From: a bacterium
GTDB lineage: Bacteria > Zhuqueibacterota > Zhuqueibacteria > Oceanimicrobiales > Oceanimicrobiaceae
NCBI GenBank assembly: GCA_046757025.1
Contig: JBHHXN010000152.1
Coordinates: 1 to 12,442 of the forward strand
Length of the DNA: 12,442 bases
Reading direction: 5' to 3'
A program made the translations under genes and the position numbers. Below are positions 4,805 to 11,985 of this stretch, in pieces (the first letter of the stretch is position 1; every line of letters starts with the position of its first letter). The notes under the pieces were generated by a model, which saw only the letters and a program-made list of their open reading frames with translations, was not told where the DNA came from and did no database searches.

Positions 4805-4833
4805 TTGCATTTGAAGTAACAAATAGTCATATT
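4805..4833 (+). promoter_or_regulatory. Candidate sigma70-type promoter upstream of element 1 and the vWA-AAA pair
   Basis: TTGCAT (4805-4810), a 17 nt spacer, then CATATT (4828-4833). The region is AT-rich, so a chance match is possible. Confidence 0.3.
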
Positions 4834-4840
4834 AATTTTA

Positions 4841-4998
4841 TAATTAGTGTCCATCCTTAAAGAGCCTTTTTTGTCATTCCCGCAATCTTTAAGCGGGAAT
4901 CCATTGGTCCGTTAGGCATGAGATTCCCGACGAGCTTGTCCCTGCATGTTGTAAGCAGGGAGCATTCGGGAATGACGATTACGGATGGACTCTAATTA
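4841..4998. mobile_element. MITE-like element 1 with terminal inverted repeats and an internal REP-like palindrome pair
   Basis: 4841-4860 TAATTAGTGTCCATCCTTAA is an inverted repeat of 4979-4998 TTACGGATGGACTCTAATTA (18/20). TAATTA occurs at both outer ends. No coding capacity. Confidence 0.7.
4873..4976. repeat. REP-like inverted hairpin pair (GTCATTCCCG...CGGGAATGAC type)
   Basis: GTCATTCCCG (4873-4882) and CGGGAATGAC (4967-4976) form a perfect 10 bp inverted repeat. Hairpin A is ATTCCCGC-N9-GCGGGAAT (4876-4900). Hairpin B is ATTCCCGA (4923-4930)...TCGGGAAT (4966-4973). Confidence 0.85.
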
Positions 4999-5061
4999 GT
5001 GCGAAAAAGATAAAAAACGTAAGTAACTAAGTATTTATTTTTAGACGCTGTTATTTTATTC

Positions 5062-6159
5062 ATGATTTTCCGATATTCCGAATGGCGCGAAGAACAAGAT
5101 AAAAGCAAGCTCACCTTTGATGAGCTCATGCGTTTATTCAGCCAACTGCTGCTGCACACCAGCGGCGACGTCAACGAGGCGCTGCAGTGGCTGACCGATC
5201 TCGACAACGAGTACCAGCTTTTCGATGACCAGGAGGGAGTGGGTTTCGATGAGTTTCTGGACTGGTTGAAAAAGGAAGGCTACATCGAAGAGTACAACGA
5301 CATTCTGTCGCTCACGCACAAAGGTTCACGAAGAATTCGTCAGGACGCTCTGGACGAGATTTTCACTTCCCTGCGCAAGAGCCCGATGGGTGAGCACGAG
5401 TCGCCGTTTTCCGGCGAAGGCATCGAGCGGCTGAGTGAGACCAAGCCGTTTAAATTTGGCGATCAGCCATCCAACATCGATTTTACTTCCACCATCAGCA
5501 ACGCCATCAAACGCGATGGGCTGGACAATTTCAATCTCAAAGAAGAGGATTTCGAAGTTTACGAAACCGAGCACCTGACTTCCTGCGCCACGGTTTTGAT
5601 GCTGGACATCAGTCACAGCATGATCCTGTACGGCGAAGATCGCATCACCCCGGCCAAGAAAGTGGCGCTGGCACTGTCTGAAATGATCATCACCCGCTAC
5701 CCAAAAGACAGCCTCGACGTGGTGGTGTTTGGCGATAAAGCGGTGGAAGTAGATATGGAGGACATTCCCATGATCGCGGTCGGTCCGTACCACACCAACA
5801 CCAAAGACGCACTGGAGCTGGGTTTGCGGATTTTGAAACGCAAGCGCAACGTCAACAAGCAAATCTTCATGATCACCGATGGCAAACCGTCGGCGATTTT
5901 TGATCGCGGCCGGCTGTACAAAAATCCGTTTGGACTGGATCGCAAGATCGTCAACCAAACCTTGAACTCGGCACGCGATTGCCGAAAAAATAAAGTAACC
6001 ATCACCACCTTCATGGTGGCTCGAGATCACTGGCTTGTTGATTTTGTCAAGCAATTGACGGAGGTGAATAAAGGCCGGGCCTATTACTCGTCCCTGAACA
6101 AATTAGGCGAATATATTTTTGTGGATTATATTCGTAATCGCAAACAACGATATAGATGA
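5062..6159 (+). CDS. von Willebrand factor type A (vWA) domain protein, partner of the adjacent AAA+ ATPase
   Basis: 365 aa with an intact MIDAS: LMLDISHS (DxSxS), YHTNT (T), MITDGKPS (D). It lies directly upstream of the ChlI-like ATPase. Confidence 0.88.
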   Translation: MIFRYSEWREEQDKSKLTFDELMRLFSQLLLHTSGDVNEALQWLTDLDNEYQLFDDQEGVGFDEFLDWLKKEGYIEEYNDILSLTHKGSRRIRQDALDEIFTSLRKSPMGEHESPFSGEGIERLSETKPFKFGDQPSNIDFTSTISNAIKRDGLDNFNLKEEDFEVYETEHLTSCATVLMLDISHSMILYGEDRITPAKKVALALSEMIITRYPKDSLDVVVFGDKAVEVDMEDIPMIAVGPYHTNTKDALELGLRILKRKRNVNKQIFMITDGKPSAIFDRGRLYKNPFGLDRKIVNQTLNSARDCRKNKVTITTFMVARDHWLVDFVKQLTEVNKGRAYYSSLNKLGEYIFVDYIRNRKQRYR

Positions 6160-6222
6160 CTTTATATTCGGGCAATGGATTGATTTTACTCATTGCCGGC
6201 TGTAATGCTAAAAAGGAGTAGT

Positions 6223-7722
6223 ATGAACAAAGCGAAAACTATTGGTGAATTGCGCAAATCTGGCTACCGTGTGTTGCCGGTGAAACAGGAAATGCGCAAC
6301 AATTTAATACATAAATTACAAAATAATGAAACCATCTTTCCAGGCATCGTGGGGTATGACGACACCGTGATTCCCGCCCTGTGCAACGCGATTTTATCGT
6401 ATCACGATTTGATCCTGCTGGGCCTGCGCGGGCAGGCGAAAACCAAAATCCTGCGCTTGCTGCCCGGTTTGCTGGATGAGTACATCCCCATCATCAAAGG
6501 ATGTGAAATCAACGACAACCCGTTCATGCCGGTGTGTAAAGCTTGCAACGATAAAGTCAAAAGCGACGGCGAGGACATCGAAATCGAGTGGCTGCATCGC
6601 GATGAGCGCTATGGCGAGAAGCTGGCCACACCCGACGTCACCATCGCCGATTTGATCGGCGATATCGATCCCATCAAAGCCGCGGCCAACCGGCTGCACT
6701 ACGCTCATGAAGGCGTCATTCATTTCGGCATCATTCCGCGCACCAACCGCGGCATCTTCGCTATCAATGAGCTGCCCGATTTGCAGCCGCGAATTCAGGT
6801 GGGGTTGTTCAACATCATGCAGGAAAAAGACATTCAGATTCGCGGCTTTCCGGTGCGCATTCCCCTGGATGTGGTCATCGTCTATTCCGCCAATCCGGAG
6901 GACTACACCAATCGCGGCAATATCATCACGCCGTTAAAAGACCGCATCGGCTCGCAGATCATGACCCACTATCCCGACGACATTCGCACCGGCATGCAGA
7001 TAACCGCGCAGGAAGCCAGAGAAAAACGGGACGGCGGTAAAGAAGTTTGCGTACCGCAGTTGTTTCGTGAGATTGTCGAGCAAATCGCGTTTGAGGCGCG
7101 CAAGAGCGAGTTCGTGGATCAGAAATCCGGCATCAGTGTGCGCATGACCATCACCAGCCTGGAAAATCTCATCAGCAATGCCGAGCGCCGGGCCATCCGA
7201 CACAATGAGAAGGTGGTGATCCCGCGTATTTGTGATCTCTACGCCACACTGAATTCCATCATCGGCAAGATCGAGCTGGTGTACGAAGGAGAGCAGGAGG
7301 GAGAGATGAACGTCGCAAAAGCCCTCATCGGCAAGGCGGTGAAAACCATCTTTCACAAATATTTTCCTGAGCCGTACGCGTCCATGAAAAAAGGCGAAAA
7401 CATTTACACCGAAGTGGTGAGCTGGTTTAAAAACGATCAGGCCATCCATTTGTCTGATGAAATGAGCACGTCTGATTATGTGGAGGAACTGCAAAAAGTT
7501 AAAGGGCTCAAAAAACTGGTAAATCGATTCATGGAGGTCGAGCATCCAGATAATCCCGACGCCGTGGCAGCGGTCATGGAATTTGTGTTGGACGGTTTGC
7601 ACCAAAACTCCATGCTCAGCAAGGATTTGGTGGACAACCAAACTTCTTACACAGACATGCTCAACACCATGATGAGCTCCCTGAGCTCAGATGATAGCGA
7701 GGATTTTTTTCGCGACAATTGA
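6223..7722 (+). CDS. ChlI/MoxR-clade AAA+ ATPase (magnesium chelatase subunit I-like)
   Basis: Walker A variant GLRGQAKT, ADLIGDIDP, RTNRGIFAINELPDL (Walker B variant), SANPEDY (sensor I), PLKDRI (Arg finger), GISVR (sensor II). The start is moved from TTG 6193 to ATG 6223 because AGGAG lies at 6214-6218. Confidence 0.88.
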   Translation: MNKAKTIGELRKSGYRVLPVKQEMRNNLIHKLQNNETIFPGIVGYDDTVIPALCNAILSYHDLILLGLRGQAKTKILRLLPGLLDEYIPIIKGCEINDNPFMPVCKACNDKVKSDGEDIEIEWLHRDERYGEKLATPDVTIADLIGDIDPIKAAANRLHYAHEGVIHFGIIPRTNRGIFAINELPDLQPRIQVGLFNIMQEKDIQIRGFPVRIPLDVVIVYSANPEDYTNRGNIITPLKDRIGSQIMTHYPDDIRTGMQITAQEAREKRDGGKEVCVPQLFREIVEQIAFEARKSEFVDQKSGISVRMTITSLENLISNAERRAIRHNEKVVIPRICDLYATLNSIIGKIELVYEGEQEGEMNVAKALIGKAVKTIFHKYFPEPYASMKKGENIYTEVVSWFKNDQAIHLSDEMSTSDYVEELQKVKGLKKLVNRFMEVEHPDNPDAVAAVMEFVLDGLHQNSMLSKDLVDNQTSYTDMLNTMMSSLSSDDSEDFFRDN

Positions 7723-7811
7723 GATGGACGCAACATCGACATCGGGAAACCAATTCCGCGGCTATTTGCAGGGGGACTAAGATTTTTGGCTCATTTCTGA
7801 CAGTGAATGAT

Positions 7812-7944
7812 TAAATAGTGATTGACCGAAAAGTCCAAATTTCTTCACCCTGAGCGAAGTCGAAGGGTGATAAGCTGTTGTTTTTAAGTCATGCTTCGAC
7901 TCCGCTCAGCATGAAGACGCTCGTTTTCGGTCAATCACTAAGTA
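7812..7944. mobile_element. MITE-like element 2 with perfect 17 bp terminal inverted repeats and an internal REP-like pair
   Basis: TAGTGATTGACCGAAAA (7816-7832) and TTTTCGGTCAATCACTA (7924-7940) match 17/17. The flanking hexamers are TAAATA (7812-7817) and TAAGTA (7939-7944). Confidence 0.75.
7843..7916. repeat. REP-like inverted pair (CTGAGCGAAGTCGAAG type)
   Basis: CTTCACCCTGAGCGAAGTCGAAG (7843-7865) and CTTCGACTCCGCTCAGCATGAAG (7894-7916) form a 20/23 inverted match. A local hairpin TCACCCT (7845-7851)/AGGGTGA (7864-7870) is also present. Confidence 0.85.
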
Positions 7945-8066
7945 GTGATTTCAAATTTCGGGGTTACGTCTGGTACCGATGCAGGTCTGACGGACGGTTT
8001 GCGTCTGTGAAAATTGCCTGGTTCAATCGAATTTTAAAACATCCTTTAGGTGCAAAGAGGGTCAAC

Positions 8067-9632
8067 ATGGAAACGCTGAACACCATAACGAAAACAGGTG
8101 TTGATTTAGAAGAACGGATTCGAAAACTCAATGCCATTGGAATTGCGCTTTCCAGCGAGCAGAATCTCAATAATTTGCTGGAGCTGATTGTGAGCGAAGC
8201 CCGTCACTTCACCAATGCCGACGGCGGTAGTTTGTATATTAAGGAAGAGGACAGGCTCAATTTTGTGGTAGCGCAAACCGAATCGCTGCAAAGGCTGAAT
8301 GGCCACGACCATGCCTTTACCTCTTTTTATTTGCCCTTGACAAAAGAAAGCATCGCCGGTTATGTGGCGATCACTGGCGAGCCGTTAAATATTCAGGATG
8401 TTTATCAGCTCCCGCCGGATGTGGAATATCGTGTGAACAAGCAGTTCGATATCAATAGCGGTTATCGCTCGCAGTCCATGTTGGTGGTGCCCATGCGCGA
8501 TCATCATGACGAAATAATCGGGGTGTTGCAACTGATCAACTCCCTCGACGGTAAAGGCACGGTGGTTCCGTTCCACCCGGATTTCGAGGACCTGATCCTT
8601 TCCCTGGCCTCGCAGGCGGCGGTAGCCATCCGAAACGTCAAGCTCATCGAAGAAATCAAAAATTTGTTTCGATCATTGGTACGCTACTCAGCCAAAGCCA
8701 TTGACGCGCGAAGTCCGCACACGGCCGGGCATTCCGGCCGGGTGGCGAAATACTCGGTGCTCATCGCACAGGCAATCAATGAGGAGACTGAAGGGAAGCT
8801 GGGGCAAATCCATTTTACCACCGAGGAGCTCGAAGAATTGCGCATGGCTGGCTGGCTGCATGATATCGGCAAAATTGGCGTGCCAGAGAGTATCCTCGAA
8901 AAAACCGCCAAATTGACCGATGACCAGCTTGCGCTTATTGAGGAGCGGTTTGAAACCATCAAAAACCAAAAGAAAATTCAATTTTTAGAGAATAGAATTT
9001 CAAAGTTGTCCCAAGACCAATTTTCCACTTCCGACTTGCCTGAATGGCAGACAAAATTGCATCAGGAGTTGGCGTTTTTAGATGAAGCGCTGGCTTTTAT
9101 TCGGGACAAGAATCAACCTGGCTATCTCAGCGCTGACGATATTTTCCGGCTCAAGAACCTTGCTGAAAAAACCTATTTCAACAGTCAGGGAGAGGTGTGC
9201 CATTATTTGACCAATAAAGAATTTGAGAATTTATCCATAATCAAGGGCAATTTAACGGAAAGCGAATACCGGGAAATTCAATCCCACGTCGAGTATTCTC
9301 TGGAGATATTGAACAAAATTCCTTTCACCAGAGAATTACAAAACATACCCAAACATACGGCGGCACACCACGAATATTTAAACGGCACCGGCTATCCACG
9401 CGGTTTGAAAGGAGATGAAATCACCTACCAGGCGCGCATCATGTGTATTGCCGACATTTTTGACGCACTGAGCTCCCCGGACCGGCCGTACAAACAGGCC
9501 ACCTCCCTCGAAAAAACATTGGACATTCTGCGCCAGGAAGTACGGGCAGGTAAACTGGATGGCGATATCGTGGAATTGTTTATTCGAAAAAAAATCTATG
9601 AACACCGCTCCACGCGAGATGATGAAGAGTAG
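8067..9632 (+). CDS. GAF domain / HD-GYP phosphodiesterase (putative cyclic di-GMP phosphodiesterase)
   Basis: The N-terminal GAF domain shows SIAGYVAITGEPLNIQDVY, FDINSGYRSQSMLVVPM and IIGVLQLIN. The HD-GYP domain shows HTAGHSGRV, WLHDIGK, HHEYLNGTGYPRGLKG and IADIFDALSSPDRPYK. The start is placed at ATG 8067 (GAGGG at 8057-8061), because the ORF-track extension to 7878 runs through element 2. Confidence 0.9.
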   Translation: METLNTITKTGVDLEERIRKLNAIGIALSSEQNLNNLLELIVSEARHFTNADGGSLYIKEEDRLNFVVAQTESLQRLNGHDHAFTSFYLPLTKESIAGYVAITGEPLNIQDVYQLPPDVEYRVNKQFDINSGYRSQSMLVVPMRDHHDEIIGVLQLINSLDGKGTVVPFHPDFEDLILSLASQAAVAIRNVKLIEEIKNLFRSLVRYSAKAIDARSPHTAGHSGRVAKYSVLIAQAINEETEGKLGQIHFTTEELEELRMAGWLHDIGKIGVPESILEKTAKLTDDQLALIEERFETIKNQKKIQFLENRISKLSQDQFSTSDLPEWQTKLHQELAFLDEALAFIRDKNQPGYLSADDIFRLKNLAEKTYFNSQGEVCHYLTNKEFENLSIIKGNLTESEYREIQSHVEYSLEILNKIPFTRELQNIPKHTAAHHEYLNGTGYPRGLKGDEITYQARIMCIADIFDALSSPDRPYKQATSLEKTLDILRQEVRAGKLDGDIVELFIRKKIYEHRSTRDDEE

Positions 9633-9786
9633 TGAGAAAATGAGTCGTTCATTTTGAGAAATATATGGAATAGCTTTTTCATTCTTTCACCAGCTCTGGC
9701 CGGTTATACCGCCAAGTGGGATGACATTTCGGGGCTGTCCATGAATGTGCTTGGAAAATCCGAATCCATCTCATGCTAATTTCAAT

Positions 9787-9953
9787 TGAAAAGTGGTTAA
9801 ACGAATACTCAAGAAAAGCACGATTTAAAAACCTCATCGCGAAGGCGTCCTTCGACAAAGCCAAGACAGGCCCGGCGGAGCTGCGCAGGGATTTACCCTC
9901 AGCCAGGAAGCCTCTGGGTAAGCGAGGGATCGTTTTCGTTCTGGCACTTAATA
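9787..9953. mobile_element. Degenerate MITE-like element 3
   Basis: AAGTGGTTAAACGAATAC (9791-9808) and GTTTTCGTTCTGGCACTT (9932-9949) form a 13/18 inverted match, and both ends resemble the ends of element 2. The GC-rich interior includes CCTTCGACAAAGC (9849-9861), which is related to the REP-like unit of element 2. Confidence 0.4.

Positions 9954-11911: not shown

Positions 11912-11985
<74 letters not shown>

Follow-up and report, generated by a model that had tools for sequence, protein, structure and literature searches.

Introduction

MITEs (miniature inverted-repeat transposable elements), repetitive extragenic palindromic (REP) sequences with a CGTC tag and the Ssn-related motifs (SRMs) have each been described in print, while hairpin pairs inside MITE shells have been described only in part. 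Few bacterial repeats are as widespread as the CGTC-type REPs (dRS3/NTS, RPE and relatives); in the main text of Di Nocera, De Gregorio & Rocco (2013, PMC3733652) they include dRS3 of Neisseria and RPE-4 and RPE-6 of Rickettsia, have no dedicated transposase and are not tied to tyrosine transposases, and REP dimers inside longer palindromes are mentioned in passing for two species. Hairpins of this class are the SRMs of Chenal et al. (2025, PMC11893778), which small GIY-YIG nucleases cut when single-stranded; this nuclease is the only characterised partner of the CGTC REPs, and its role in their spread is left open in that main text. We analysed three short intergenic elements, designated E1, E2 and E3, in a 12,442-nucleotide contig (JBHHXN010000152.1 of assembly GCA_046757025.1; C152 in our numbering, and hereafter the window) of a bacterium of the Zhuqueibacteria.

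The three elements are ordinary MITEs with recurrent hairpin cargo. They have the ends and the TA-NN-TA insertion site of ISNCY-family insertion sequences (ISs), and the DDE transposases of that family very probably copied them in trans. The genome is thus a clear case of hairpin pairs multiplying inside MITEs with identifiable ISNCY partners and a defined target. Our literature search, made in main texts, turned up no account of MITEs of this IS group and none in which dimers of Ssn-type hairpins are a regular cargo of MITEs.

Results

Three inverted-repeat elements in successive intergenic regions

The window belongs to a genome assembly (G000) of 5.96 Mb in 374 contigs, with 47% G+C and 94.8% completeness. 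E1, E2 and E3 lie in three successive intergenic regions within a run of plus-strand genes (radical SAM / VWA / 509-aa protein / GAF-HD / DnaG). E1 is a 146-bp MITE at 4847–4992, recognised by its inverted ends of A type (GTGTCCATCC...) and its family copies; the target-site copy TAATTA on its left (4841–4846) recurs on its right (4993–4998), and the arms, 4841–4860 and 4979–4998, are 20 nt long and 90% complementary. E2 is a 121-bp MITE at 7818–7938 with B-type ends (GTGATTGACCGAAAA). Its left flank TAAATA (7812–7817) differs by one mismatch from the right flank TAAGTA (7939–7944), and its 27-nt arms (7806–7832 and 7924–7950) are 85% complementary. E3 is a 155-bp MITE at 9793–9947 whose ends (GTGGTTAAACGAATAC / GTGCCAGAACGAAAAC) are of B type. 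It is old and degenerate, sharing 73–82.5% identity with its relatives within the genome, and its 18-nt arms (9791–9808 and 9932–9949) are only 72% complementary. None of the three elements, 121–155 bp in size, has coding content. The three inverted-repeat pairs with cores of 146, 121 and 155 bp, from which the original prediction had started, are therefore real.

The loose end consensus WAGTG-N6-CGWAWW of that prediction held in part. The genome has 677 occurrences of the motif GTG-N6-CGWAWW, where base composition predicts about 379, and the excess falls into six N6 classes (TCCATC 68, ATTGAC 63, TCTGAA 54, ATTGAA 26, TTTGAA 16 and TCTGAC 15). WAGTG itself is composite, consisting of the inner TA of the target and the GTG of the element end. 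Two end types were distinguished, A (GTGTCCATCCG) and B (GTGWYTGAMCGAAAA), and both are flanked by TA-NN-TA.

Beside E1 and E2, short stretches directly after the right target of E1 (4999–5009, GTGCGAAAAAG) and after that of E2 (7945–7962, GTGATTTCAAATTTCGGG) resemble truncated B-type ends and may be relics of neighbouring elements.

Ends and insertion site of ISNCY insertion sequences

We profiled 61 related genomes with the NCBIfam model of ISNCY transposases, NF033593, at its curated cut-off of 325 bits; we take this family to be the ISDol1 group of ISfinder, with a 6–7-bp duplication. Matches over the cut-off were found in 8 of the 61 genomes. At 5 of the 8 best loci (L008, L009, L011, L012 and L013), A-type or B-type ends with TA-NN-TA flanks stand on both sides of an element of 1.8–1.9 kb. 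Two further loci, L014 and L015, have one such end each, the other end of L015 falling beyond the contig start, and L010 has different ends (GTTCCTGTAG) with the same flanks. A-type ends bound the ISNCY elements at L012, L013, L014, L015 and L159; the ends at L008, L009 and L011 are related B-type ends whose N6 letters differ from those of E2. Matching flanks were read at L009 (TAATTA/TAATTA), L012 (TATTTA/TATTTA) and L157 (TACTTA/TACTTA), the last of these belonging to more distant relatives that combine GGGNYTACWGAAAAA ends with the same TA-NN-TA flanks. The expectation that the related ends belong to a transposase family was thus borne out by full ISNCY ISs in relatives, and because these share both the ends and the insertion site of the MITEs, movement by ISNCY transposases is likely.

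The transposases of the two end types are far apart. The A-end protein of L014 (362.3 bits) and the B-end protein of L009 (516.6 bits) are only 25% identical, so E1 was probably served by another enzyme than E2 and E3. A single transposase for all three elements, the one trans-acting enzyme of the original prediction, was dropped on this ground.

In the window genome itself, an 885-bp ISNCY remnant was found at C83:13870–14754, with one good B-type end (TAAGTA followed by GTGTCTGACCGAAAAG). Its transposase remnant (14105–14368) corresponds to amino acids 354–443, the last 90, of the 444-position model, contains one TAG and scores 102 or 91 bits, below the 325-bit cut-off. A PF01609 search of this genome returned five DDE genes, none with A-type or B-type ends, and long-range pairing of ends for a full IS gave chance pairs and the C83 remnant only. 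Longer copies enclosing a transposase, which had been proposed as a check, therefore exist in relatives, and in the window genome only this decayed remnant was found. The MITEs may now be orphaned.

Copy number and repeat families

A blastn search of the genome with each element (E < 1e-3) gave 101 hits for E1, 128 for E2 and 118 for E3. Hits that span 85% of the query or more, a count that takes in the query itself, numbered 43, 5 and 31, respectively, the 31 of E3 at 73–82.5% identity. For the element census, inward-facing pairs of A ends (GTGTCCATCCGTAA) and B ends (GTG[ACT][TC]TGA[AC]CGAAAA) were collected with at most 2 mismatches per end and 50–330 bp apart. The genome contains at least 208 such paired elements, 152 of them BB, 50 AA and 6 mixed; the window copy of E3 is outside this count, its ends being too degenerate for the mismatch filter. 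When each end was joined more loosely to whichever opposite end lay closest, 246 pairs resulted, and 158 of them are 120–160 bp. Many contigs begin or end inside MITEs (e.g. C5:91–249, C164:1–118, C97:1–65 and C43:1–67), so the assembly is limited by repeats and the copy numbers are lower bounds. The high genome-wide copy number of a non-autonomous element, predicted from three copies, was confirmed by this end scan. Long open frames (600 nt or more) contain only 1 of the 208 elements, compared with 708 of 1000 random intervals; nearly all elements are intergenic.

The interiors of the paired elements formed 37 clusters. The E1-type core is present in 63 copies (49 AA, 12 BB and 2 AB) and the E3 family in 55, with a short form in a further 17. 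E2 proper has 5 copies and an E2 variant with a nested 26-nt insert in its loop has 14; two further cores bounded by GTCAT have 12 and 9. Median divergence from the consensus was 4.8% for the long E1 form (34 long A-shell copies), 4.2% for the short E1 form, 2.5% for E2, 4.9% for the E2 variant and 10–12% for E3. Copies of E1 are 76–97% identical over their full length. The unit of multiplication is the whole element, and each family amplifies whole; since the E1 family does so at this full-length identity, capture of cargo is rare relative to transposition.

A palindromic core of about 70 bp (GTCATTCTGGAAGAATC...GATTCCTACAGAATGAC), read at C67:3185–3251, has about 75 further copies and outnumbers any shell around it. 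Some of its copies have outer CTGTGTGAAAA inverted repeats.

Target site, duplication and arrays

The six bases outside the element ends are mainly TATTTA, TAATTA and TAAATA, and the two flanking 6-mers are identical in 73 of the 208 elements; a second count gave 72 of 207. TATTTA/TATTTA was found 22 times and TAAATA/TAAATA 19 times, as compared with only 2 cases of TATTTA/TAAATA. When the middle dinucleotide is not palindromic, it is equal in direct orientation in 95 elements, equal in inverted orientation in 5 and otherwise in 40. An NN that is direct on both sides is the signature of a duplicated target and not of a longer inverted repeat.

Twelve pairs of neighbouring elements are exactly 6 bp apart, with one TA-NN-TA common to both. 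If each insertion recreates the target on both sides, such arrays can be read as later insertions beside earlier ones. The same re-use of the target is seen for an ISNCY IS: at L009 (G017:C278, 162–2158), a second copy follows directly after the first with one TAATTA in common, although only the first 116 bases of this second copy are on the contig.

Comparison of orthologous loci

The VWA, 509-aa and HD-GYP genes are adjacent in 19 loci of relatives, and no A or B ends were found in those intergenic regions. To the left of E1, upstream of the VWA gene, the conserved sequence CAAATAGTCATATTAA can be aligned with G012 and G008 as far as the insertion point; beyond it the window genome has about 150 extra bases, and the site in G012 is nearly empty.

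Upstream of E1, a promoter-like or operator-like stretch (TTGCATTTGAAGTAACAAATAGTCATATTAAT, 4806–4840) is kept in G012 and G008, the G008 version having a near-perfect palindrome in its middle. Standing between this stretch and the VWA gene, E1 is probably transcribed. A shared promoter or operator box was also considered and dropped. The genes of the window, all on the plus strand, encode an alpha-amylase-domain protein, a radical SAM protein, a VWA protein, an unnamed 509-aa protein, a GAF/HD (HD-GYP) protein and DnaG. Downstream of dnaG is a tRNA gene at 11912–11985 (Rfam RF00005, 73 bits); this was the sole Rfam match over the window, and no family was returned for E1, E2 or E3.

Hairpin cargo of the interiors

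The interior of E1 is an inverted dimer of REP hairpins with a (C/T)GTC tag and 8-bp stems starting with AT. The left unit (4872–4904, plus strand) consists of a TGTC tag, the stem ATTCCCGC, a 9-nt loop, the stem GCGGGAAT and the tail CCA. The inverted right unit (4922–4977, minus strand) has a CGTC tag, the stems ATTCCCGA/TCGGGAAT, a 35-nt loop and the end CTC, and a TGTC-tagged mini-hairpin (4936–4960) is nested in its loop. The long and short E1-type cores differ by one such mini-hairpin of about 27 nt in the loop, in the A-shell as well as the B-shell families. E2 carries another hairpin class, with a GTC tag on one unit and a 5-bp stem; its two inverted units (7846–7869 and 7888–7913) also pair with each other, and what sets the E2 variant apart is an insert of 26 nt in a loop. 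The interior of E3 is barely structured, lacks tagged hairpins and is not REP-like. Single-stranded DNA folding against shuffled sequences gave z −6.1 for E1, z −8.8 for E2 and z −0.3, no better than the shuffles, for the window copy of E3. The REP-like palindromic interiors that had been claimed for all three elements were accordingly found in E1 and E2 and not in E3. The interiors have nothing in common with the insertion sequence.

Within the window, the published search motif for SRMs (PMC11893778) fits only 4872–4904; E2, E3 and the right unit of E1 do not match it. Genome-wide it is matched 94 times, where Markov controls give about 17, and A or B shells enclose 31 of these matches.

Related hairpin cores in other shells

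Shell and cargo proved to be modular, as had been proposed: one shell holds several cores, and one core is found in several shells. In the window genome both A ends and B ends are found around the E1-type core, and in G017 and G007 a closely related core stands in a quite different shell. In public records, a 19-base gapped pattern matched at least 94 stretches, of which 80 were fetched; 10 of these are real MITEs with A ends and GTC-tagged cores of various kinds, and the others match by chance. The records, among the matches listed, are titled as Calditrichaeota, KSB1 and Desulfobacterota-type metagenome-assembled genomes.

Altogether, related hairpin cores were found in at least four shell types, with duplications of TA-NN-TA, 8 bp or 9 bp. 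Family X (ends TACGGCTATCCAGTT) has 22 pairs with clear 9-bp target duplications and is represented by a 221-bp MITE at C13:21102–21322. Its core is a hairpin dimer whose reading is near-identical to the printed Neisseria NTS consensus. Several family X copies landed inside E2-type hairpins. Family W (ends GTAACTATTCAG) has 20 pairs with 8-bp duplications. Its short forms of 123–186 bp are without a GIY-YIG gene, while a 463-bp form (C129:9742–10204 and C28:34307–34769) encloses a small GIY-YIG open reading frame (ORF) between two GTC-tagged hairpins, so that the search for longer copies with a GIY-YIG gene, suggested in the original prediction, was successful. This cassette of gene and hairpins has 6 copies, all with stop codons; both W ends are present in 2 of them (C28 and C129), and the 8-bp duplication is seen in the C129 copy and not in the C28 copy.

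The genome contains 9 small GIY-YIG ORFs or pseudogenes in all. An intact 98-aa ORF at C173:9606–9902 (L160, 1489–1785) is bordered left and right by arrays of hairpin dimers (GTCATTTCGAGGAGCG...GAAATC). The small GIY-YIG ORFs flanked by GTC-tagged hairpins reach 64 bits with Pfam; NCBIfam returned nothing over its cut-off for them, and a PDB sequence search gave no match. None of 63 strict SRM motif matches is within 400 bp of a small GIY-YIG ORF.

Discussion

The shells of E1, E2 and E3 are well supported as the MITE ends of ISNCY-type ISs. Inverted ends, a duplicated target, high copy number, intergenic bias, an end type and flanks identical with those of full ISs in relatives and absence from orthologous loci were all observed directly. 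In the mechanism that we propose, transposases of at least two lineages, one for the A-type ends of E1 and one for the B-type ends of E2 and E3, would have bound the ends of about 15 bp and inserted the elements at TA-NN-TA, duplicating at least NN. Because the target would be recreated on both sides, later copies could insert next to earlier ones and build arrays. The two-tier mobile system of the original prediction remains apt as a description, with the limits that the elements multiply whole, that their core variants are shell-specific and that more than one transposase lineage is involved.

Several observations weigh against transposition by ISNCY enzymes or leave it less complete. Deviations in the outer TA positions are seldom common to both sides (6/63, 1/40, 0/45 and 2/62), and because these positions are near-invariant, the duplication may be 2, 4 or 6 bp long. 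The flanks of E3 (TGAAAA and TTAATA) have lost their match. No intact ISNCY transposase was found in the 94.8%-complete assembly. In the contigs of four metagenome runs of one study, the C83 remnant is single-copy, with a depth equal to that of its flanks and no further copy at 82% likeness or more. The same contigs break inside E1 and E2, and none has a joint that skips an element; depth summed over the elements in these contigs does not equal copy number. The MITEs and the ISNCY elements share only about 15–16 bp, which gives no support for descent by internal deletion, and among the 61 genomes A-type ISs were seen only in other families of the class and none in the window's own family. Absence from the orthologous loci is supportive and not decisive, since the relatives are of other genera (about 70–84% identity of the 509-aa marker). 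With these points taken into account, we still regard copying in trans by ISNCY-family transposases as highly probable.

The hairpin cargo might instead be the active unit. An Ssn-type GIY-YIG nuclease would nick GTC-tagged hairpins, repair or template switching would copy the dimers into palindromes, including the centres of MITEs, and the shells would be colonised secondarily, in line with the preferential colonisation of the original prediction. The 9 small GIY-YIG ORFs or pseudogenes are in keeping with this, as is the intact C173 ORF, whose GTC-tagged dimers on both sides reproduce the ssnA architecture in the main text of PMC11893778. Likewise, 107 of 240 GTCAT-hairpin units of the abundant stem classes are more than 150 bp from any A or B end, related cores occupy at least four shell types with different duplications, and, in A-shell and B-shell families alike, discrete hairpin modules of 26–27 nt are found in some loops of other hairpins and missing from others. 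However, the unit of similarity is the whole element, shell included, and the duplications are at the boundaries of the shells and not of the cores. The core variants are also specific to their shells, with the stem ATTCCCGC in A shells and ATTCCTGC or ATTCCAGC in B shells, which indicates co-amplification rather than recent colonisation. No strict SRM match is within 400 bp of a small GIY-YIG ORF, and Ssn is reported in the main text of PMC11893778 for cleavage and an effect on transformation, with no copying activity. We therefore consider active hairpins improbable as the source of the elements.

Spread of REP or REPIN-type repeats by a RAYT acting on single-stranded hairpins has still less to recommend it. 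The interiors are inverted hairpin pairs as in REPINs, and three Y1_Tnp matches exist in the genome. The best of these (C146, 140 bits), judged from its sequence and score, has the look of an ordinary IS200-type TnpA. Neither an element nor a hairpin unit of the abundant classes is within 2.5–3 kb of any of the three, and the suggested check for a RAYT gene flanked by the REPs came out negative. Peel-and-paste transposition (IS200/IS605) makes neither target duplications nor double-strand-type inverted ends, and these elements have both. CGTC REPs are, moreover, reported as unassociated with tyrosine transposases in the main text of PMC3733652; the RAYT explanation is largely refuted and its probability is close to nil. 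Nearly as implausible is the view that the three sites are host regulatory sequences under selection (terminators, operators or RNA stabilisers) rather than mobile DNA. E1 and E2 fold strongly, all three elements are between co-oriented genes, and E1 is just downstream of the conserved promoter-like or operator-like stretch. Against this view, the same intergenic regions lack the elements in 19 relative loci that keep the genes, hundreds of copies with target duplications are at unrelated loci, and no Rfam family matches. Secondary effects of the elements on transcription are possible.

With ISNCY-type MITEs as the preferred explanation, the hairpins are likely to be passive cargo whose spread is due in part to the shells. 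More tentatively, GTC-tagged hairpin dimers could be portable cargo captured repeatedly between the ends of unrelated DDE transposons, namely the A and B types of ISNCY and the 8-bp and 9-bp families, one of whose shells has the GIY-YIG gene. Such hitch-hiking might then be the missing route of spread within genomes and across phyla, with nuclease nicks perhaps seeding the captures and the nested insertions of 26–27 nt; we hold this for possible, though rather doubtful. Because the same cargo is found in several unrelated shells, the question of how the hairpins spread can be tested with defined transposases and elements. For annotation, hundreds of intergenic palindromes in this lineage are explained as transposon remnants and not as regulatory sites.

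Among known systems, REPINs and their RAYTs, reportedly described by Bertels and Rainey in 2011 with an inverted hairpin doublet as the repeated unit, share that doublet with our elements; they differ in that no RAYT association was found here and in the double-strand-type ends and duplications. The small dispersed repeats (SDRs) of Nostoc, said by Elhai et al. in 2008 to be 21–27 nt long and nested in each other and in minitransposons, resemble the 26–27-nt modules that come and go in the loops of E1- and E2-type cores, although they have other sequences and belong to another phylum. The CGTC-tagged REPs, as presented in the main text of PMC3733652, agree with E1 in the (C/T)GTC tag, the 8-bp stem starting with AT, the inverted dimer and, on the left unit, the CCA tail. 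The loops of E1 are 9 and 35 nt rather than 4–5 nt, E2 and E3 are outside the family, and the outer palindrome is identified here as IS ends with a target duplication. The Ssn/SRM system (PMC11893778), in whose main text a word search found no mention of MITEs, differs also in that the strict SRM is not found within 400 bp of a GIY-YIG ORF in our genome. It is alike in that 4872–4904 fits the SRM motif, family X is near the NTS consensus, and the genome has small single-domain GIY-YIG ORFs flanked by GTC-tagged hairpins. Compared with MITEs derived from DDE ISs of the ISNCY type, E1–E3 have an interior unrelated to the IS, no intact partner found in their own genome and two end types with divergent transposases. 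They agree with MITEs of this kind in being short and non-coding, with IS-type inverted ends, the same target site, a duplication, a high copy number and an intergenic location.

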